Source: Wolbachia endosymbiont of Litomosoides sigmodontis
Lineage (GTDB): Bacteria > Pseudomonadota > Alphaproteobacteria > Rickettsiales > Anaplasmataceae
DNA: 32,000 nt
Direction: 5' to 3'
Assembly (NCBI RefSeq): GCF_013365435.1
Contig: NZ_CP046577.1
Location: 510,001 to 542,000 of the forward strand
Part shown: positions 971-27,870 of the stretch, one piece after another
Layout of the letters: each line of letters begins with the position of its first letter
Numbering within the stretch: the first letter of the stretch is position 1
Translations under genes and position numbers: made by a program
Notes under the pieces: generated by a model
Databases searched by the model: none
What the model was told of the DNA's origin: nothing
What the model saw: only the letters and a program-made list of their open reading frames with translations

Positions 971-2458
971 ATGATACTGAGAGCATTGCTGCATGATATT
1001 GGTAGTTTTCCTGTTATCCAAGTGTCAAGCACTGGGGTTCAGCAATTAGCGTTACACACTGGAACAATACTAGACAACTGCACTATTGATTTTAACCTTG
1101 AGGTTAAGGGTGTTACGTGTAACCCGAAGAAAGTTAAAGATGGTTATCTCTTTGTTTGTGTATCGGAAGAAGGTGAAAGATATGTAAGTATTGTAAAAGC
1201 TTCAGTAATAATAGCGAGTTTAAATGCAGTTCCAGCACATGGCGCTGAGATCTGTATCTTTTACCCCAATCCTCTAGCCATATATGGCAAAATAGTTAGC
1301 AGATTTTATCAATTTAAGCAGCTCAAATATGTTACTGCTGTAACAGGTACAAATGGTAAGACTTCAGTGGTGGAGTTTTGCCGTCAAATCTGGCAAAATG
1401 CAGGTTATAATGCAGCATCTGTGGGAACACTTGGAACATGTGTTAATAATGAAAGGGAAGATAATAACAACAGCCTTACTACTCCAGATGCAAATGATCT
1501 CTATTTCATATTGCGTGATGTGAATAGCAAAAATATAGAACACTTAGCATTAGAGGCTTCGAGTCATGGAATTGATCAGTATAGAATTCATGGATTAAAA
1601 TTAAATGCTGCAGCTTTTACTAATTTCTCACAAGATCATTTGGATTATCATAAAGACGTAAGTAAATATTTCGAAGCTAAGAAAAGGTTATTTTACGAGG
1701 TACTGCCAGAAGGAAAAACGGCAGTATTAAATTCGGATATAGATGAATATTACGCATTACTCAAGATAGCTAAAAAACGTGGCAACAAAGTTATAGCATA
1801 TGGAAAAATAGGATCTGACATTACTTTATTAAGACAGATTCCCACTTTTGATGGTCAGCATCTTATAATTAGAATTGGTAATGAAGTTTACAGTATGTTT
1901 TTTCCAGTTTTAGGGCAGTTTCAGGCGTATAATTTGCTGTGTGCAATAGGTATAGTTATTGCATCTAAGTTAGATTATCGTAAGATATGTATAAATAAAC
2001 TCGTTTCTTTACCTGGAAGAATAGAAAAGGTAAAACCTTTTGCATTTGTAGATTACGCACATACTCCAAGTGCTCTTAAACAAACTCTATTATCTTTAAA
2101 GTGGCATTTCAATAAAAAAATAGTTCTGGTTTTTGGTTGTGGTGGGAATCGCGATCAGGCAAAACGTGCAGAGATGGGTAAAATAGCGAAGGTGTATGCA
2201 GACAGAGTAATAGTTACAGATGATAATCCGCGTGATGAAGATCCAGCAAAAATTCGTCACGATATTTTGCTATGTTGCTCTGATGCACTAGAGGTAAGGG
2301 ATAGGAGAAAAGCTATAAAGAAAGGTATAAATATTGCCTATGATAAAAATATGATCCTGCTTGTTGCAGGAAAGGGACATGAAAAATTTCAAATTATAGA
2401 AAACAAAACTTTTGAATTTAGTGATGTTGAGATTATTAAAAATCACATTTTAATATGA
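971..2458 (+). CDS. murE: UDP-N-acetylmuramoyl-L-alanyl-D-glutamate--2,6-diaminopimelate ligase
   Basis: 495-aa ORF with the Mur ligase P-loop 'GTNGKTS', 'DYAHTP', and the mDAP-specific 'DDNPRDEDP' (DNPR) motif. There is no alternative ATG/GTG/TTG start between 971 and the conserved N-terminal domain. Confidence 0.9.
   Translation: MILRALLHDIGSFPVIQVSSTGVQQLALHTGTILDNCTIDFNLEVKGVTCNPKKVKDGYLFVCVSEEGERYVSIVKASVIIASLNAVPAHGAEICIFYPNPLAIYGKIVSRFYQFKQLKYVTAVTGTNGKTSVVEFCRQIWQNAGYNAASVGTLGTCVNNEREDNNNSLTTPDANDLYFILRDVNSKNIEHLALEASSHGIDQYRIHGLKLNAAAFTNFSQDHLDYHKDVSKYFEAKKRLFYEVLPEGKTAVLNSDIDEYYALLKIAKKRGNKVIAYGKIGSDITLLRQIPTFDGQHLIIRIGNEVYSMFFPVLGQFQAYNLLCAIGIVIASKLDYRKICINKLVSLPGRIEKVKPFAFVDYAHTPSALKQTLLSLKWHFNKKIVLVFGCGGNRDQAKRAEMGKIAKVYADRVIVTDDNPRDEDPAKIRHDILLCCSDALEVRDRRKAIKKGINIAYDKNMILLVAGKGHEKFQIIENKTFEFSDVEIIKNHILI
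1013..1040. repeat. Short palindromic motif (Wolbachia-type 'agtgtcaagcactgg' hairpin) inside the murE 5' coding region
   Basis: 'gttatccaagtgtcaagcactggggttc': stem ccaagtg/cactggg with loop tcaag. The 13-mer aagtgtcaagcac recurs exactly at 15806-15818. The 11-mer gttatccaagt recurs exactly at 26659-26669, inside the rluC insertion. Confidence 0.7.
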
Positions 2459-6286: not shown

Positions 6287-6332
6287 AAAAAGTAAAATTA
6301 GATTATATGAATATATGTTTTGAGCAAAAACA

Positions 6333-6513
6333 TTGCGATATTTAAGAACAAGAGAAACTTTTCTTATCAGGCATTGTATTAGTTGGCATAAGTTAAAAAA
6401 TTTGGGGATTTTATGTCCAATTTGTATTACCTCTTCTTTTTCTTACTCACAATCAAACAATTCTACAATGTCACTAAAAATCTGTTTATTTGACCCAATG
6501 ATACTATTAGTAT
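6333..6513 (+). mobile_element. Decayed IS630-family element fragment (3' part, including a degenerate terminal repeat)
   Basis: Aligns by eye with 27675-27870 of the right arm (see 27114-27870): 'atatttaagaacaagagaaacttttcttatcaggcattg...ttagttggcataagttaaaaaattt...caatcaaacaattctacaat...tttgacccaatgatac'. The 60-aa ORF at 6333-6515 is this remnant. Confidence 0.5.
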
Positions 6514-11849: not shown

Positions 11850-12430
11850 TACCAATTCTTGTTGTTAATGGGTAAAAAATAAGTGGCATTTGTATTTAAG
11901 ATTGGTGAGTATAGTCGTAAGTATATAATTTCACAATATTTTTAGGTACATAAGGCTTCTCGCGTTCTTAAATATTGTGGCATTCAATACAAATAAGCTA
12001 AAACTTTCTTCACTTCTATGATTAATTGTACTGTAGAAATAAAAATTTTGTCTACCTACTTTTACTTTAATCTATGTTCTAACGCCCCTTTTTAACCACT
12101 CATGTATATAACTTTCTAGTATGTAATAAATCATGATTCATCAAAGATGAATAACTCTTGTCAGGATACTTACCAATAGTTTTATTAAGCTTTTTCAAAC
12201 TTTTCCCTACCTTCCTTTATCTTGTTAGGTGTACTGCAAATTTGCTGACATTAAAGCTAAATTTTTCTTGGATTCTCATTCTCGTTCTCTTAACAATAAT
12301 TTTTTGAATTTGGCATAGAGCAAATTGGAGCCATTAATAAACTAAACTTCTAGCTTTTCGCTGATGCTTTAGGGAAAGCTCATATTATAAAGAAATTTGA
12401 TAAAGTATAGCTAAGGAAAATTGATAAAAA
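11850..12430 (-). mobile_element. Decayed IS630-family element (internally deleted, many frame disruptions)
   Basis: It begins with the same TA + 'ccaattcttgttgtt' terminus as 24987-25003. It shares the exact 26-mer 'attcatcaaagatgaataactcttgt' (12136-12161 = 25344-25369) and 'gctgacattaaagctaaatttttcttggattctcatt'. The degenerate far end is 'aggaaaattgataaa'. Confidence 0.6.
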
Positions 12431-12734: not shown

Positions 12735-12809
12735 TGCACCCTGAGCGACTTGAACGCCCGACCTTTTGATCCGTAGTCAAATGCTCTAATCCAACTGAGC
12801 TAAGGGTGC
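12735..12809 (-). tRNA. tRNA-Arg (anticodon ACG)
   Basis: The reverse complement folds as a cloverleaf: acceptor GCACCCT/AGGGTGC, D-arm GCTC-AGTTGGATTA-GAGC, anticodon arm TTTGA-CTACGGA-TCAAA, T-arm GGGCG-TTCAAGT-CGCTC, discriminator A. It is 75 nt and CCA is not encoded. Confidence 0.9.
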
Positions 12810-12849: not shown

Positions 12850-13016
12850 ATTAATTTGGTTGAATAAAAAAACAGAATTCTGCTTATTACTGTAAACTTA
12901 CTGACATTTAAGCCAAATTTTTCCTTGATTCTCATTTCTTCCAAATTTTAAGTACTTTATCTATAATGCTATTTCTTGTATAGTGATAATTAGTATAATA
13001 ATGAGAATTATGGTAT
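12850..13016 (-). mobile_element. Decayed IS630-family fragment (5' part with terminal repeat)
   Basis: 'ttactgacatttaagccaaatttttccttgattctcatttc' matches 25491-25540 and 12240-12280. The end 'aataatgagaattatggtat' (12997-13016) matches the terminal repeat 'aacagtgaaaattggtat' / 'aacaatgagaattggtat'. Confidence 0.45.
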
Positions 13017-13149: not shown

Positions 13150-15729
13150 TTAATATGAATCTATGCTTACAATAAACTTTCTACTTTTAGTTGTAAGTCC
13201 TTCTTGTGTATTTTCATCACTCCATTCTATCATTTCAGCATTGCAGATCGTCTGTAAATCATTTTGCGCAGACTGATTCAACTTATCCTCTTGTACATTT
13301 GCTTTTATTATTAATTTTTTTATCAAATGCTTAACTGAGACATTATTGTCCGCTTTTATTTTTCTCACGATATTTAATATCTGCATGAAATTATCTCCCA
13401 TTTCTTCAGAATGCTTATCATAGATAAGCTCTTCCTTATTCGGCCAATTACCTCTATTATGCACAGAATTATAGCTATATAGTTGATGGTATATTTCTTC
13501 CGTAATATATGGTAGAAAAGGTGCAAATAACCGCAAAATAATATTTAATACACACGTCAAGCTTTGTTTCGCACTTAAATTTTCCTTACTGCTTACTTTA
13601 TTTCCGTATGCACGTTTCTTTGCTAATTCCAAATAATTGTTACAAAAATCTTTCCAAAAAAATTCTTCTACTGTACTCAAAGCTACACAGTATTCAAATT
13701 GTAATAAGTTATCCGTTGCTTTTTCTATAACCTTGTATAATTTAGACAATATCCACTGATCCATTGTCTCACTGACAGAATTTATATTTATAGCTTGATG
13801 CTTTTCTATGAACATAGAAACAAACTTGCTGGCATTCCAAAGTTTTGTAACAAGGCGCTTGCCAATTTTTAATGTATTTTCAGAATATACTGTATCAACC
13901 CCAAGATTTGAGTTTGCTGCCCAATAACGCACTACATCTGCACCGTATATATCAAGTATCGACTTTGGAGTTATTATGTTACCTTTTGATTTACTCATCT
14001 TTTTCTTATCATCAGCTAAGCACCAGCCACTGATCATGATATTTTTCCATGGTAAAGAATTTGCATGGTAGTACGCTTTCAAAATCGTATAAAAAGCCCA
14101 AGTTCTTATTATTTCATGGCTTTGGCTACGTAGATCCGCAGGAAATATCTTGTTATAACGGTGATTTAGCAAGCTAAACTCACTATTTATTGCTAATGCA
14201 TTCAGTTGAGGAGTAATTGCACTTGTAGCCCAGGTATCCATTACATCTTGATCTGGAATCACCTCATTCTTACTATACCCCTTAGGCAAATCCTTCAATG
14301 GATCTATAGGCAAGTTATTTACTTCAGCTATGATGATTTTACCTTCTTCCCCTTTACGTTTTGAATACCACACTGGAAATGGTACACCAAAATAACGTTG
14401 CCTTGAGATACACCAGTTCCAATTTAGTCCTTCTATCCACACTTCTATACGCTTGCGCATGGTGCTTGGGTGCCAGTTACATTCTTTTACTTTATCTAAT
14501 ATCTGAGCTTTTTGATCTAAAGTCTTAATAAACCATTGATAAGTAGGCAATATTTCAAGTGGCGCACCAGACCTCTCTGCATATTTGACAGAATGAGAAA
14601 TGTTGATGCTTTCTGTTAGAAGTCCTCTTTTAGTTAAAATTTCAATTATCCTCTTTCTTGCTTCTCTAATCCTTAGTCCATTGATTTCATTGTAGACTTC
14701 AGTATTACACACTGGAATGACGCTATGATGTAGTGAAATTGCACCTTCCTTTATAATCTTAGTACTTCTTTCTTCTGTCATTCCATTACCTTGACAATGG
14801 GATCTATTACTATCGTACACTGAATAATTTAGGTTTATTCTTCCATCCTGATCTATAATAATCTTTATCGGCAAATTATGTTTTTGTTGCCAATATATGT
14901 CAAGTTCATCACCGAATGTACAACACATAACAAGCCCAGTACCTTTATCTACCTTAACCTTATCATCAGCTATTATTGGAACTTTTGCTCCTATTATTGG
15001 TACTACAGATGTTTTTCCGATCAGATGAGCATAACGTGCATCCTCTGGGTGGCAAAAAACTGCAACACATGCTGGAAGTAACTCAGGCCGCGTCGTTGCA
15101 ATATCGATTTGCTCATTTTCTTCAGTGGAAAAAGTTATTGTGTTTAAAGATGACTCACAGACTTTTTCTTCTATTTCTGCTTGTGCAATTGCTGTTTTAT
15201 CAATCGGATCCCAAAGAATAGGCTGCATCTTTTTATATGCATATCCCTTATTATATAGATCAATGAACGACATTTGAGAAAGCGTTACAGTTTCTTTGCT
15301 GATTGTATGGTATACCAAACCCCAGTCATAACTAATACCAACTGATCTGAATAGTTCCTTAAATTCTTGCTTTGATTTTTCGATAACGTTATAGCACATC
15401 TCTATAAATTTTTCTCTGCCAACTTCTCTTGCACGGGTTTTATAAGTTTGTTCTACCAATCTTTCAGTAGGAAGGCCATTGTTATCAAATCCAATTGGAT
15501 AAAAGACATCTTTTCCAAGCATGCGTTGAAATCTTGCAATAAAGTCTGTGTGACAATAGCTGAATATGTGACCAATATGCAATTTACCTGATATCGTTGG
15601 CGGAGGTGTATCTATAGTAAAAGTATTCTCCTTTTTACCATTCCATTTATAAATCCCTCTACCTTCCCATAACATATTATACTTATTTTCAACTTCTTTG
15701 AAGCTGTATTTTTTTTCTAACATGATCAC
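13150..15729 (-). CDS. valS: Valine--tRNA ligase
   Basis: 859 aa with the class I motifs 'PPPTISGKLHIGH' and 'KMSKSKGN' and the editing-domain region 'TTRPELLPACVAV...CCTFGDELD'. It carries an extra palindromic-repeat-derived segment (see 14700-14803). Confidence 0.92.
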   Translation of the reverse strand: MIMLEKKYSFKEVENKYNMLWEGRGIYKWNGKKENTFTIDTPPPTISGKLHIGHIFSYCHTDFIARFQRMLGKDVFYPIGFDNNGLPTERLVEQTYKTRAREVGREKFIEMCYNVIEKSKQEFKELFRSVGISYDWGLVYHTISKETVTLSQMSFIDLYNKGYAYKKMQPILWDPIDKTAIAQAEIEEKVCESSLNTITFSTEENEQIDIATTRPELLPACVAVFCHPEDARYAHLIGKTSVVPIIGAKVPIIADDKVKVDKGTGLVMCCTFGDELDIYWQQKHNLPIKIIIDQDGRINLNYSVYDSNRSHCQGNGMTEERSTKIIKEGAISLHHSVIPVCNTEVYNEINGLRIREARKRIIEILTKRGLLTESINISHSVKYAERSGAPLEILPTYQWFIKTLDQKAQILDKVKECNWHPSTMRKRIEVWIEGLNWNWCISRQRYFGVPFPVWYSKRKGEEGKIIIAEVNNLPIDPLKDLPKGYSKNEVIPDQDVMDTWATSAITPQLNALAINSEFSLLNHRYNKIFPADLRSQSHEIIRTWAFYTILKAYYHANSLPWKNIMISGWCLADDKKKMSKSKGNIITPKSILDIYGADVVRYWAANSNLGVDTVYSENTLKIGKRLVTKLWNASKFVSMFIEKHQAININSVSETMDQWILSKLYKVIEKATDNLLQFEYCVALSTVEEFFWKDFCNNYLELAKKRAYGNKVSSKENLSAKQSLTCVLNIILRLFAPFLPYITEEIYHQLYSYNSVHNRGNWPNKEELIYDKHSEEMGDNFMQILNIVRKIKADNNVSVKHLIKKLIIKANVQEDKLNQSAQNDLQTICNAEMIEWSDENTQEGLTTKSRKFIVSIDSY
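14700..14803. repeat. Palindromic element inserted in frame within valS
   Basis: 'cagtattacacactggaatgacgc' (14700-14723) and 'gtcattccattaccttgacaatggg' (14778-14803). tggaatgac and gtcattcca form a perfect 9-bp stem around a ~53-nt loop. The segment is translated as '...RSHCQGNGMTEERSTKIIKEGAISLHHSVIPVCNTEV...'. Confidence 0.65.
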
Positions 15730-15861
15730 TTAAAGTATTCCTTAATTTCAAATCAATAGCCTAACATAAGCGGTTTCCCTATGTATAACTAAATTTCCTG
15801 AATCTAAGTGTCAAGCACATATCTGGATTACACCAGACCAATTTCCACTGTGCAAGAAACA

Positions 15862-15977
15862 GATAGACAATAATGAAAAAAAAGAAGCCTTTGACGAATC
15901 GCGGTTGGTACGCATTCGAAAGTTGGATAAGGGTGGTTTAAAATGGCATTAAAACACAAGTAAAATTAGATAGACAA
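15862..15977 (+). repeat. MITE-like repeat, copy D
   Basis: 'gatagacaataatgaaaaaaaagaagcc' matches the copy B terminal repeat. 'ggtttaaaatggcattaaaacacaag' matches the shared core. It ends in a second 'gatagacaaaaa'. A palindromic motif, 'ctaagtgtcaagcacat', lies just upstream at 15804-15820. Confidence 0.5.
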
Positions 15978-16023
15978 AAATTTTATCTCTTTTATACCGT
16001 GTATTAACACTAATTGTATGAAC

Positions 16024-16271
16024 GTATCTCTTGAATAAATGTGCAATTTTTAAAATACAAGAAGCCATTGAGTTCAATCATACCAAGAGACTTTTGCTGT
16101 ATATAAACAGAACATTTTGCGTAGCAAAGTCTGTGTGTAAATTTACAACTTCTCTTTATTCTCACTACGCAATAAAACAACTCTATAATATCATTTATTT
16201 GTTCTATATAATAGTGAGAATCATATTATGAGCGTGGATCTAGAGACACCTTAAATGTGAGAATTGCAATA
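16024..16271 (+). mobile_element. Decayed IS630-family fragment (3' part) with two tandem terminal-repeat-like ends
   Basis: 'ctcttgaataaatgtgcaa...aagaagccatt' matches 27654-27695. 'ttctcactacgcaataaaacaactctataat' matches 'ttccttactacacaattaaacaattctgcaat'. The ends are 'aatagtgagaatcat' (16210-16224) and 'aaatgtgagaattgcaat' (16253-16270). The 66-aa ORF at 16031-16231 is this remnant. Confidence 0.45.
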
Positions 16272-24986: not shown

Positions 24987-25775
24987 TACCAATTCTCATT
25001 GTTAGCGAGTCAAATAAGTAAAATTGCAGAATTGTTTAATTATGTAATAAGGAGGTAATAAGTTGTACAAAGCACTCTTAAGCAAAGTAACTGTATTATA
25101 ACCTTTATTATGCAAAATCTTCTTGTTAAATTTTTTAATTTACACCAACTAGTGCCAATCCATGCCAAGAAAGGCTTCTCATATTCTTAAGTATTAGAAC
25201 ATTTATCAAGAAATATATTCATACAATCAGTGTTGATATTTAGTGCAAATAAGCTAGAACTCTCTCCATTTCCAGCATCTACTGCACTGTAACGCCATTT
25301 TAAAATCACTCGTGCTCAACTTTCAAATGTGTGACAAACTGCAATTCATCAAAGATGAATAACTCTTGTACGAAATATTTACTAATAGTCTCATTAAGTT
25401 TTTTAAAATCTTCCTGTCTATCTTTATCTTGTTCATTATGAATTGGTCTTGATGTAATATGTAAAACTTCATTTTTGAGGTATATTATAGACTTGCTGAC
25501 ATTCAAGCCAAATTTTCCTAGATTCTTATTTTCATTTCTCTAATGTTAATATTAGAATTTTCTTATATCCATACTTCAACTTATTTAAATTGGCTCTGAT
25601 TTAATCTAGTTCTTCTATAGCGTTGAAACTGTGCTTTTTGCTGATTATAGCAGCTAGTTTTTTTGTAACATATGCGTTGCTTCACACTTTTTTAGCATTT
25701 CTTTTGCTGATTTCGCGAGATTTTTTTTATTTAAAAATTTTGATTCTAATGCCATTTAAACAGTGAAAATTGGTA
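24987..25775 (-). mobile_element. Non-autonomous, decayed IS630/Tc1-mariner-type element with both terminal inverted repeats and flanking TA/TA (left arm of the inverted pair)
   Basis: The ends 'ccaattctcattgtt' (24989-) and the revcomp of 'aacagtgaaaattgg' (-25773) match at 13/15 positions, and each abuts a TA (24987-88, 25774-75). Minus-strand remnants read '...GKFGLNVSKSIIYL...' (HTH-like), 'QELFIFDELQF' (first acidic DDE region, 66-aa ORF 25306-25506) and 'NLLPPYY' (cf. family 'LPPYSPELNP'). Stops and frameshifts interrupt these. Confidence 0.7.
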
Positions 25776-25865: not shown

Positions 25866-27104
25866 ATGGAAAATATAAAAACCATATCAGTAGAAGATAA
25901 CAATGTTAGGCTAGACAGATACATTAGAAGGATCTTTCCCAATTTAAAGCAATCTACAATTGAGAGGTCTTTAAGGAGAGGATTAATCAAAGTTAATGAC
26001 TGCAAAGCCCAGTCTAATGACAGAGTAAATTACGGACAAATTATAATGATAAAATACTTAGATTGTATTAAAAATACTAATTCTGATTTCAAATATAATG
26101 AAAAATTGATAGAGCTATTAAGAAGTAACATATTATACGAGGACGAATATATATTAGCCATTAACAAACCTGCAGGAGTAATTGTTCAAGGTGGAATAAA
26201 AGTAAAGATTAGTATTAGTGACTTGCTTGATCAAATTAGAGAGGGGAAAATATTTAAAATTGTCCATAGACTAGATAAAGACACAAGCGGAGTAATAATA
26301 TTCGCACGCAATGTTAATGTTGCCAGATATCTTATAGAGGAATTTAAAGGAAGGAGAGTAAAAAAAACTTACTTAGCATTAACCTCTGGCATACCAAGCA
26401 AGAATAGAGGAGTAATAGACTATCCATTGGTGAAGAAATATGTTTCAGGTCAAGAAAAAGTGGTCATTGACGAAAATTCATCCAAGAATGCTACTACACG
26501 TTTCTCGATTATAGCAAAATTCAAATTTAATAAACCTTTCATGCAACGTCCTATCATTCAAGTAGCTAATGCACAGTTATACGAACATTGTAATTCAAGT
26601 TTACCAAAAGTGCATCACTTAAGCGGCCTTTCTTCCTGTGATTTCAGTGCTCCCTTTTGTTATCCAAGTACCTTTTTTTGTCATCTCAGCGCCATGACAT
26701 TGAGACCTGGCAAAATTGATTGTAAACAAGCGCATTACACAACATTCTCAATCAAAAAGTCAGATTCTAGTGCTAAACGCTGGAATGAAACTAGATCTGT
26801 TGCTTATTTAAAATTACAACCAATCACTGGCAGAACACATCAGTTGCGTGCACATTTAGCTTATATAAACTGTCCTGTTCTTGGTGACGGCAAATATGGT
26901 GGCAAAAAAGCTTTTGTCGATGGCATAGCAAGTAAAATCCACCTTCACTCATATTCTTTATCTTTAAAACTACCAAATGGTAAAAAAATCACTATTACTG
27001 CACCTCCCCCTGAGCATATCATAAAGTCCATTGAGACGCTACACACTCTCTTTCAAGAGACAAATACTAGAGAAGCTTGCAAAGCAGTAATTAAAAAAAA
27101 ATAA
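25866..27104 (+). CDS. rluC: RluA-family 23S rRNA pseudouridine synthase (RluC/RluD-type) carrying a 92-codon in-frame insertion
   Basis: S4 domain ('RLDRYIRRIF...GLIKVN'), catalytic 'HRLDKDTSGVIIFA', 'KKTYLALTSG', 'TGRTHQLRAHL'. At 412 aa it exceeds my recollection of about 300-320 aa for this family. The extra segment lies between 'TRFSIIAKF' and 'VAYLKLQPITGRTHQ'. Confidence 0.85.
   Translation: MENIKTISVEDNNVRLDRYIRRIFPNLKQSTIERSLRRGLIKVNDCKAQSNDRVNYGQIIMIKYLDCIKNTNSDFKYNEKLIELLRSNILYEDEYILAINKPAGVIVQGGIKVKISISDLLDQIREGKIFKIVHRLDKDTSGVIIFARNVNVARYLIEEFKGRRVKKTYLALTSGIPSKNRGVIDYPLVKKYVSGQEKVVIDENSSKNATTRFSIIAKFKFNKPFMQRPIIQVANAQLYEHCNSSLPKVHHLSGLSSCDFSAPFCYPSTFFCHLSAMTLRPGKIDCKQAHYTTFSIKKSDSSAKRWNETRSVAYLKLQPITGRTHQLRAHLAYINCPVLGDGKYGGKKAFVDGIASKIHLHSYSLSLKLPNGKKITITAPPPEHIIKSIETLHTLFQETNTREACKAVIKKK
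26523..26798 (+). repeat. Palindromic-repeat-derived insertion inside the rluC-like CDS (frame preserved)
   Basis: The insertion contains 'gttatccaagt' (identical to murE 1013-1023), 'ttgtcatctcagcgccatgacattgagacctgg' (a degenerate copy of the tgtcatcccagtg...cactgggat-type palindrome), and terminal 'tatcattcaag' (26552-) / 'ctggaatgaaa' (-26790), whose arms are reverse complements at 8/9 positions. Confidence 0.7.
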
Positions 27105-27113
27105 AGAAATCAC

Positions 27114-27870
27114 TAGAATCAAAATTTTTAAATAAAAAAAGTCTCGCGAAATCAGCAAAAGAAATGCTAAAAAAGTATGAAGTAACGCATATGTTACAAA
27201 AAAAACTAGCTGCTATAATCAGCAAAAAGCACAGTTTCAACGCCATAGAAGAACTAGATTAAATCAGAGCCAATTTAAATAAGTTGAAGTATGGATATAA
27301 GAAAATTCTAATATTAACATTAGAGAAATGAGAATAAGAATCTAGGAAAATTTGGCTTGAATGTCAGCAAGTCTATAATATACCTCAAAAATGAAGTTTC
27401 ACATATTACGTCAAGACCAATCCATAATGAACAAGATAAAGATAGACAGGAAGAGTTTTAAAAAACTTAATGAGACTATTAGTAAATATCCCGTACAAGA
27501 GTTATTCATCTTTGATGAATTGCAGTTTGTCACACATTTGAAAGTTGAGCACGAGTGATTTTTAAAATGGCGTTACAGTGCAGTAGATGCTAGAAATGGA
27601 GAGAGTTCTAGCTTATTTGCACTAAATATCAACACTGACTGTATGAATATATTTCTTGAATAAATGTTCTAATACTTAAGAATATGAGAAGCCTTTCTTG
27701 GCATGGAATGGCACTAGTTGGTGTAAATTAAAAAATTTAACAGAGGATTTTGCATAATAAAGGCTATAATACAGTTACTTTGCTTAAGAGTGCTTTATAC
27801 AATTTATTACTTCCTTACTACACAATTAAACAATTCTGCAATTTTACTTATTTGACTCGCTAACAATGAT
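27114..27870 (+). mobile_element. Decayed IS630-type element, truncated at both termini (right arm of the inverted pair)
   Basis: It is the reverse complement of 24996-25748, with about 20 substitutions and 5-6 one-base indels by hand alignment. It lacks the inner ~25 bp and the outer ~8 bp of the terminal repeats. It starts 9 bp after the rluC stop codon. Confidence 0.7.

Follow-up and report, generated by a model that had tools for sequence, protein, structure and literature searches.

The RluC-like (RluA-family) 23S rRNA pseudouridine synthase gene of wLs, the supergroup D Wolbachia of Litomosoides sigmodontis, lies on the forward strand at positions 25866..27104 of the 32-kb stretch of DNA analysed here (the window, to which coordinates refer unless another locus is named) and contains an in-frame insertion of 89 codons (26532..26798, + strand) that is a decayed copy of a multi-copy, modular palindromic repeat of Wolbachia. 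Very probably, this is an ancient copy of a repeat of the CGTC-4 type of repetitive extragenic palindromic (REP) sequences which was acquired before the supergroup D filarial Wolbachia split and which sits in frame in a functional gene. The original prediction, made from the nucleotide sequence, had placed a 92-codon palindromic insertion at 26523-26798; the insertion and its end were borne out, whereas its size (89 codons) and its start (26532) had to be corrected, position 26523 taking in three host codons.

With respect to the limits of the insert, a comparison with 29 empty-site Wolbachia orthologues, in all of which AK(F/L/S)xHN is immediately followed by VAYLKL, assigns it exactly to amino acids (aa) 223-311 (KPFMQRP...WNETRS), between Asn222 and Val312 of the host protein, and thus to a position between two beta-strands, 8-10 residues upstream of the GRTHQLR motif. 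The alignment to E. coli RluC (PDB 1xpi) accordingly falls into two pieces, with query residues 86-221 and 315-392 corresponding to chain residues 4-140 and 144-227, respectively, and about 90 extra residues in between, as expected from the original observation that the gene is some 90 aa too long and carries the excess in one block before the TGRTHQ motif. After deletion of aa 223-311 the alignments to RluC (E value improved to 9e-33), RluA, RPUSD4 and RluD each run in one piece. Of the 120 best Wolbachia homologues, about 115 lack the insert and five carry it (P0001-P0005); it is likewise missing in E. coli RluC, RluA and RluD and in most Wolbachia, among them members of supergroups A, B, C, E, J and T. 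The block is therefore a lineage-restricted in-frame insertion into the catalytic domain, absent from more than 100 other Wolbachia orthologues but common to wLs, to wBm and to wLbra, the Wolbachia of L. brasiliensis, and the proposal of an insertion is borne out by the orthologue alignment.

When aligned with intergenic copies, the inserted DNA resolves into a hairpin module H1, a spacer S1, a module H2, a spacer S2 and an inverted module H3. The module consensus is TGTC-ATCCCAGTG-CTTGA-CACTGGGAT-CCAG, and the element as a whole, made of three or more modules and two conserved spacers, measures about 183 nt in its canonical form and 267 nt in the wLs gene. On the + strand throughout, the decayed left terminal module H1 (26550..26576), which holds the left arm quoted in the original prediction (TCATTCAAG), is recognised by alignment with the intergenic copies, by blastn and by nhmmer (26554-26627), and it is followed at 26577..26636 by the conserved spacer S1 (TTATACGAACATTGTAATT...) and then by sequence specific to supergroup D (DNA alignment, blastn). 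Codon and DNA alignments reveal two 21-nt tandem half-module units at 26637..26678 (TGTNATNNNAGTNC...TTT). Such additional half-modules are found between S1 and H2 in the supergroup D rluC copies, and the unit at 26637-26657, present only in wLs, constitutes a 7-codon in-frame indel with respect to wBm and wLbra. Module H2 (26679..26710; TGTCATCTCAGCGCCATGACATTGAGACCTGG) has the best-preserved stem of the wLs copy (folding, alignment, nhmmer 26679-26790), the conserved spacer S2 (26711..26759; AAAATTGATTGTAAACAAGCGCATTACACAACATTCTCAATCAAAAAG) encodes KIDCKQAHYTTFSIKK (peptide matches to small Wolbachia open reading frames (ORFs), DNA alignment), and the decayed, inverted right terminal module H3 (26760..26792) holds the quoted right arm (CTGGAATGA; alignment, nhmmer, and a minus-strand match to the module pattern given below at 26764-26789 with 3 mismatches). 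All motifs that had been quoted were found at the places given for them.

The descent of the block from a dispersed repeat is evident from DNA as well as from peptide comparisons. In blastn searches, positions 6-69 of a canonical copy match 26554-26617 (E=2e-10), and a second match covers 26679-26788 (E=1e-15). A hidden Markov model (HMM) of the element that was built only from 8 intergenic copies of other Wolbachia and run over the window with nhmmer matches the insert at 26679-26790 (E=2.6e-21) and at 26554-26627 (E=1e-6). A profile of the insert peptides of the five strains matches only small Wolbachia hypothetical proteins that overlie intergenic repeats (e.g., ...SSQCLTLGSRKIDCKQTHYTTFSIKSWIPVS... 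and ...SSQCLTLGSRKIDCKQTHYTTFSIKSWIPVSSTGMT), and a phmmer search of the insert against 1.84 billion representatives returned P0003, three small Wolbachia ORFs and two further proteins (P0214, P0215), the latter two being dismissed as unrelated tandem-repeat proteins and thus as repeat artefacts. Intergenic DNA copies are present in five or more Wolbachia genomes or metagenome-assembled genomes (MAGs; loci L005, L006 and L009-L012), with at least five separate copies within one 20-kb supergroup A locus. The homology to these intergenic repeats of other Wolbachia extends over about 180 nt, and the claim that the inserted DNA is unlike pseudouridine synthase, is built of repeats and occurs elsewhere could be confirmed. 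Within the 32-kb window, blastn of the insert found no second full copy of the element, and there is no Rfam match inside the insert; the sole Rfam match in the window at the gathering threshold is a tRNA gene (12735-12809, minus strand). In wMel, where the rluC site itself is empty, intact modules and spacers crowd the intergenic DNA that adjoins rluC on its upstream side (L004 285-1070 and 2618-2956).

As to the affiliation of the repeat, CGTC-tagged REPs are defined by three features, namely AT as the first two stem positions, a loop of 5 nt and a tail that reads CCA (Di Nocera et al. 2013, PMC3733652). The CGTC-4 REPs, equated with the Rickettsia palindromic element (RPE) of type 4, RPE-4, have been reported in wMel and wRi, and the supplementary table of the same study contains one Wolbachia in-gene CGTC-4 copy, VIPVLDTGI in WRi_011360 (PMC3733652). 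This peptide back-translates to GTCATCCCAGTGCTTGACACTGGGATC (GTC ATC CCA GTG CTT GAC ACT GGG ATC), which is identical to the module consensus obtained here. The 5-nt loop and the CCA tail were found in 19 modules of the form ATCCCAGTG-CTTGA/TCAAG-CACTGGGAT-CCAG in the loci L001-L012, and the stem begins with AT as published, while the tag is mostly TGTC-AT, with CGTC-AT occurring in a copy in valS (GCGTCATTCC; see below). By the features tested, the modules, (C/T)GTC-ATCCCAGTG-5 nt loop-CACTGGGAT-CCA, would belong to the CGTC-4 REP family (RPE-4 type). The palindrome is not retained in the window copy, where module matches need 3 mismatches.

The same insert with identical junctions is found in wBm (L003) and in wLbra (L008), the DNA of the latter (P0003) having been obtained via a genome scan, whereas no DNA was obtained for P0004. 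The insertion must therefore be older than the divergence of these supergroup D strains, and the flank dS (synonymous divergence) among the three carriers wLs, wBm and wLbra is 0.19-0.35. The ability to fold has been lost to differing degrees, as expressed by z-scores against shuffled sequences of -5.1 and -11 for intergenic copies of arthropod strains, -5.5 for the short insert in P0005, -2.6 for the wLbra insert and -1.4 for the wBm insert. The wLs insert, with +0.71 (RNA), +0.75 (DNA) and -0.04, folds no better than shuffled sequence and is thus a member of the element family by descent and not by present structure; the description of the insert as palindromic is correct for its origin but does not apply to the present wLs copy. 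Amongst the three carriers, the raw divergence of the insert is 14-23% as compared to 12-21% at the four-fold sites of the flanks, and its differences are nearly evenly distributed over the three codon positions (24/11/22, 12/7/16 and 17/12/18 in the three pairs). From these comparisons we conclude that the insert would be evolving at about the neutral rate, with little or no constraint on the peptide and with the reading frame alone being policed.

The reading frame of the host gene contains no stop inside the insert, in comparison to 4-10 stops in each of the other five frames, and the probability of an open frame of 89 codons by chance amounts to 0.0036-0.0046 given the composition of the insert itself (GC 38%) and to 0.0012 given that of the window. 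Although the original estimate of about 1e-3 thus proved sound as a number, the selection deduced from it was in part overstated: of 5 anchored intergenic copies, 4 are without a stop in the homologous frame, while the other frames have 1-5 stops each except for one reverse frame of one copy. One reading phase is therefore free of stops by nature in this element family, and the openness of the insert stems partly from the element itself, so that the figure exaggerates the contribution of selection after insertion.

Better evidence for selection comes from the host codons 3' of the insert, because these are constrained. In the three carriers, the ratio of non-synonymous to synonymous divergence (dN/dS) is 0.15-0.23 upstream of the insert and 0.12-0.18 downstream of it in all three pairs, with values of 0.8-1.16 for the flanks in alternative frames as a control. 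This downstream constraint is the strongest evidence for in-frame translation across the insert and for an enzyme that is in use, and, together with intact motifs and a frame open in three genomes, it supports the contention that the host gene has been kept translatable. For the insert, the Nei-Gojobori dN/dS is 0.16-0.39 in frame 0 and 0.27-0.55 in frame 1; because frame 1 gives similar values in two of the three pairs, the low frame-0 ratio is unreliable, and its use as a sign of constraint was dropped after the alternative-frame control and the codon-position counts.

With respect to expression, the wBm rluC gene adjoins the pyruvate dehydrogenase E1 gene (Wbm0207) and lies two genes from the pyruvate phosphate dikinase gene (PPDK, Wbm0209), by which synteny the wBm orthologue is Wbm0206. 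This gene (WBM_RS01235) is listed as "RluA family pseudouridine synthase" without a pseudogene flag and with a normalised expression of about 1000-1260 (PMC7787461, supplement), so that transcription, proposed as a check on the original prediction, is documented for an insert-bearing orthologue. The dual RNA-seq supplement of another study (PMC5373514) has no entry for Wbm0206, and proteomic evidence was not found. Given the signature of selection in the flanking codons, we infer that the insert is probably translated and that enzymatic activity has been retained.

The identity of the host gene was established from its ORF, domain content, orthologues and structure matches. The 412-aa product matches PF00849 (RluA family) with E=1.7e-29 and is 100% identical to the top database protein, the NCBI wLs entry P0001. 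It comprises an S4-like N-terminus, the catalytic motif HRLDKDTSG (Asp137) and GRTHQLR at aa 322-328, with both motifs being invariant across the aligned Wolbachia orthologues. Its best NCBIfam subfamily is TIGR00005, where it falls just short of the cut-off (190.3 vs 192.7) because the insert splits the alignment. Against NF008249, the RluC equivalog model (cut-off 378 bits), it scores only 146.9 bits and hence does not reach the equivalog level with E. coli RluC; it is called RluC-like from the best match and from KEGG K06179 in the wBm annotation. The NCBI proteins of wLs (P0001, 352 aa) and wLbra (P0003, 329 aa) start at the internal Met62, in comparison to 412 and 389 aa, respectively, for the full ORFs. 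The region upstream of Met62 (26048 being its last position in the window, from 25866 onwards, and L008 6449-6631 in wLbra) encodes the S4-like N-terminus, which every orthologue retains and for which the prediction is of high confidence, and the annotated Met62 starts of the wLs and wLbra proteins are probably too short.

For the structure of the host protein, a first AlphaFold2 run on 34 Wolbachia sequences was set aside with a predicted local distance difference test (pLDDT) score of 41, and a second run was based on 53 sequences including enterobacterial RluD. The latter reached a mean pLDDT of 58.5 and a predicted template modelling (pTM) score of 0.50, with values of 60-90 in the S4-like N-terminus and the catalytic core, and the core of the model matches the structures of RluD, RluC and RluA (E=1e-12 to 1e-17). 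In model 2, the strands 210-218 and 312-319 flank the residues 218-310, which are modelled as coil with a pLDDT of 20-34. The insert is thus probably an unstructured loop excursion from the turn of a beta-hairpin, and its location in a surface loop as well as its disorder are predictions of this model. The surface excursion that had been raised as a question before fits the flanking strands and the coil between them, a fit that in a model of moderate quality falls short of proof.

Taken together, these observations are best accounted for if a repeat landed in frame in the beta-hairpin turn of an RluC-like enzyme before wLs, wLbra and wBm diverged. The stop-free phase of the element and a loop site between two strands would have made the insertion tolerable, so that an excursion of about 89 residues was accepted. 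Since then, the insert has probably drifted near-neutrally, losing its palindromes and, in wLs, gaining a 21-nt in-frame tandem unit. Any stop or frameshift would have been removed by selection, as the C-terminal part of the enzyme is essential.

Alternatively, the 89 residues might have been exapted as a functional module, e.g., an RNA- or ribosome-binding arm, with the peptide now being under selection. In favour of such a scenario are the insert dN/dS below 1, which is lowest between wLs and wLbra (0.16 vs 0.55 and 0.82 in the other frames), the persistence of the block in three or more lineages of supergroup D at a flank dS of up to 0.35, and the good conservation of the KIDCKQAHYTTFSIKK stretch. 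However, this stretch is conserved in non-coding intergenic copies, too, and its conservation therefore reflects the element and not the protein; moreover, the divergence of the insert equals or exceeds that of the flank four-fold sites, the substitutions are near even over the codon positions, the ratios for frame 1 are about as low in two pairs out of three, an indel of 7 codons is tolerated, and AlphaFold2 gives the block no structure, all of which renders exaptation improbable. Even less credit can be given to the possibility that the gene is a pseudogene, or about to become one, with a fortuitously open frame. Filarial Wolbachia do have many pseudogenes, and a second, rluD-like pseudouridine synthase of wBm has been flagged as one (PMC7787461); the TIGR00005 score of the host protein is just below the cut-off, and staying open by chance is not negligible if transitions dominate. 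Yet the sub-threshold score is due to the split alignment, the downstream codons are constrained in all three pairs, the catalytic motifs are invariant, the same frame is open in three genomes, and Wbm0206 is transcribed and annotated as intact. That the block is ancestral Wolbachia RluC sequence which has been deleted in most lineages is scarcely credible: same-site inserts do occur in phylogenetically separate strains, namely in supergroup D, in the MAG-derived P0005 and in P0004 from the Wolbachia of Cantharis, but neither the three E. coli enzymes RluC, RluA and RluD nor most Wolbachia (among them members of supergroups A, B, C, E, J and T) possess the block, the DNA of which shows homology over about 180 nt to scattered intergenic repeats of other Wolbachia.

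The inserts outside supergroup D also bear on the number of insertion events. P0004 and P0005 carry shorter inserts of 33-38 aa at the same site, with the same terminal modules and junction codons, which encode VIQVADTGI and VIPVRGTGI, respectively. It has to be considered, as a somewhat unlikely scenario, that the site was colonised independently or that the insert moved between supergroups by recombination, the inserts of supergroup D, P0004 and P0005 thus representing separate hot-spot events. The different interiors of inserts sharing terminal modules and junctions would agree with this, and so would the lack of any insert in P0093, the nearest empty-site relative of P0005; the P0005 MAG gene is closest to the empty-site gene of the Wolbachia of the pseudoscorpion Atemnus politus. 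In addition, P0004, from the Wolbachia of Cantharis cryptica, is a mosaic with a switch of parentage at the insert: of its aligned residues, the N-terminal 157 share 93% identity with supergroups A and B, whereas the C-terminal 83 share 95% with wFol (supergroup E) and no more than 86% with any of the others compared. In turn, all carriers share the left-junction codons K-P/S-L/F-x-Q-R/H-P, unseen in the aligned intergenic copies, which fits one event followed by internal deletion. The site may have been hit once, long ago, with internal deletions and losses afterwards, or it may be a hot spot, or recombination may have spread the insert; the issue concerns the history of the insert only, being compatible with the reading of the block as an ancient, decayed CGTC-4-type repeat. 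That CGTC-4-type repeats have landed or recombined more than once in the beta-hairpin turn before GRTHQLR of Wolbachia rluC appears rather doubtful; if the inserts were independent events, or if the repeat brought about an exchange of gene halves between supergroups, the machinery mobilising CGTC REPs would have target specificity, and repeats within genes would act as breakpoints that build mosaic housekeeping genes.

Several points weigh against the interpretation of the block as an ancient in-frame repeat copy in a functional gene. The probability that none of the approximately 70 substitutions seen produced a stop is 0.03-0.05, but rises to 0.2-0.3 if they were mostly transitions. The frame-0 dN/dS of the insert could mean some constraint on the peptide, although it is ambiguous in view of the frame 1 values. 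A scan of the genome collection with a spacer pattern yielded 5 loci, none of them from wLs or wBm, and the copy counts hence concern other Wolbachia. The inserts of P0004 and P0005 would fit one as well as several insertion events. Finally, the structural model is moderate only and a low pLDDT is no proof of disorder, and the evidence for transcription comes from the wBm orthologue only.

Related modules were found in frame in two further genes of the window. The 11-mer that the insert shares with murE, one of the motifs by which the kinship with murE and valS had initially been argued, is by itself at chance level (plain blastn, E of about 0.4), and shared 11-14-mers are not significant. The kinship is instead supported by the element HMM and by the module pattern GTCATYCCAGTGN5CACTGGRAT, which, searched with up to 3 mismatches in the window and in shuffles thereof, has exactly three matches in the window, in murE (1013-1038), valS (14696-14721) and rluC (26764-26789), compared to 0.00 expected from the shuffles. 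The valS gene contains a decayed related copy in frame (14690..14835, - strand), with the element in the opposite orientation to that in rluC; besides the pattern match, it is detected by the HMM at 14776-14805 (E=7.5e-4) and at 14694-14722, as a block of about 42 extra aa (aa 299-347) with respect to the Thermus thermophilus ValRS structure 1gax, and by its peptide (...HHSVIPVCNT..., ...SNRSHCQGNGMTEERSTKIIKEGAISLHHSVIPVCNT...). A weak intergenic match to the HMM lies just upstream of valS (15781-15834, E=8.6e-3). In the murE ORF (971-2458), a decayed related module (1006..1080, + strand; nhmmer 1012-1080, E=1.6e-3, and pattern) occupies aa 12-37 (SFPVIQVSSTGVQQ...; SFPVIQVSSTGVQQLALHTGT), and homology to solved MurE structures starts only near aa 40. 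Either the element thus supplies the N-terminus of MurE, or the true start lies downstream.

The rluC gene is moreover located within a unique segment of 1359 bp between two inverted repeats of about 756 bp (24996-25751 and 27111-27869) which are 96.6% identical and contain short ORFs only, the left arm ending 115 bp short of the ATG and its counterpart on the right beginning 7 bp past the stop codon. In wLbra, the version flanking rluC is more diverged (74-84%), and none was seen at the wBm and wMel loci. The segment could be invertible or gene-converting. Partial copies of the arms, 70-87% identical, are found at 12080-12290, 12893-12937, 6301-6403 and 15889-16069 of the window and constitute a non-coding repeat family of wLs and wLbra.

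With a flank dS of up to 0.35, the rluC insert provides a clean and datable case of a selfish palindromic repeat that an obligate mutualist has long carried in the gene of an essential-type enzyme. The comparison of three strains separates layers that are usually confounded, i.e., the open phase that is inherent in the element, the decay of insert and palindromes at a near-neutral rate, and continued purifying selection on the host gene, by which the reading frame alone is policed. It is also a warning for annotation, as such genes fall just under family cut-offs and are given shortened starts.

RPEs were reportedly described by Ogata et al. in 2000, and Wolbachia palindromic elements (WPEs) are said to go back to Ogata, Suhre and Claverie in 2005 (Trends Microbiol 13:253). 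Like the element in rluC, the RPEs of Rickettsia, including RPE-4, are short multi-copy palindromic repeats that reside in frame in housekeeping genes without destroying them, and the RPE-4 hairpin appears to be built alike, from a (C/T)GTC tag, a stem with AT at its start, a loop of 5 nt and a tail that reads CCA. The Rickettsia peptides VIPWLDHGI and WIPWSNHGMT are similar to VIPVRGTGI, VIQVADTGI and WIPVSSTGMT found here. However, RPE-4 is a single REP in Rickettsia, whereas the present element is a composite of modules and spacers with another sequence in another genus, the palindrome of which has been lost in wLs. Pseudouridine synthases are known as hosts from the R. conorii truB gene with RPE-1 and from the Stenotrophomonas truA and truB genes with REPs (PMC3733652).

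WPEs are in-frame palindromic repeats in Wolbachia genes that were first obtained from wBm, a strain which carries the same rluC insert; the term WPE-like has been applied, in a loose sense, to in-frame palindromic inserts in addA, addB and priA (PMC4224334) and in birA (PMC3767692). As reported for WPEs, the modules described here are rich in the ATGAC motif (...GGGATGAC), the element is repeated in Wolbachia genomes in the form of intergenic copies, and it is inserted in frame without disruption in rluC, as well as in valS and murE in the window. Wolbachia CGTC-4 REPs have been stated to be unrelated to the wBm WPE (PMC3733652), and because of this separation the rluC element may not be a WPE in the strict sense. 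Leaving aside WPE identity at the sequence level, the RPE/WPE-type behaviour originally proposed for this rRNA-modification enzyme, namely an in-frame repeat in a constrained gene, agrees with the present results.

GTAG-type REPs have dedicated transposases, the REP-associated tyrosine transposases (RAYTs), whereas none is known for CGTC-type REPs (PMC3733652). With the REP and bacterial interspersed mosaic element (BIME) clusters and the miniature inverted-repeat transposable elements (MITEs) of free-living bacteria, the element shares its organisation as modular hairpin arrays in both orientations with conserved spacers, its mostly intergenic location and its non-autonomous nature. It differs from classical REPs in that these are rarely translated. 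The rluC insert is thus a further instance of a phenomenon known in Rickettsia and in Wolbachia, and it leaves the view of RPE/WPE-type elements unchanged.

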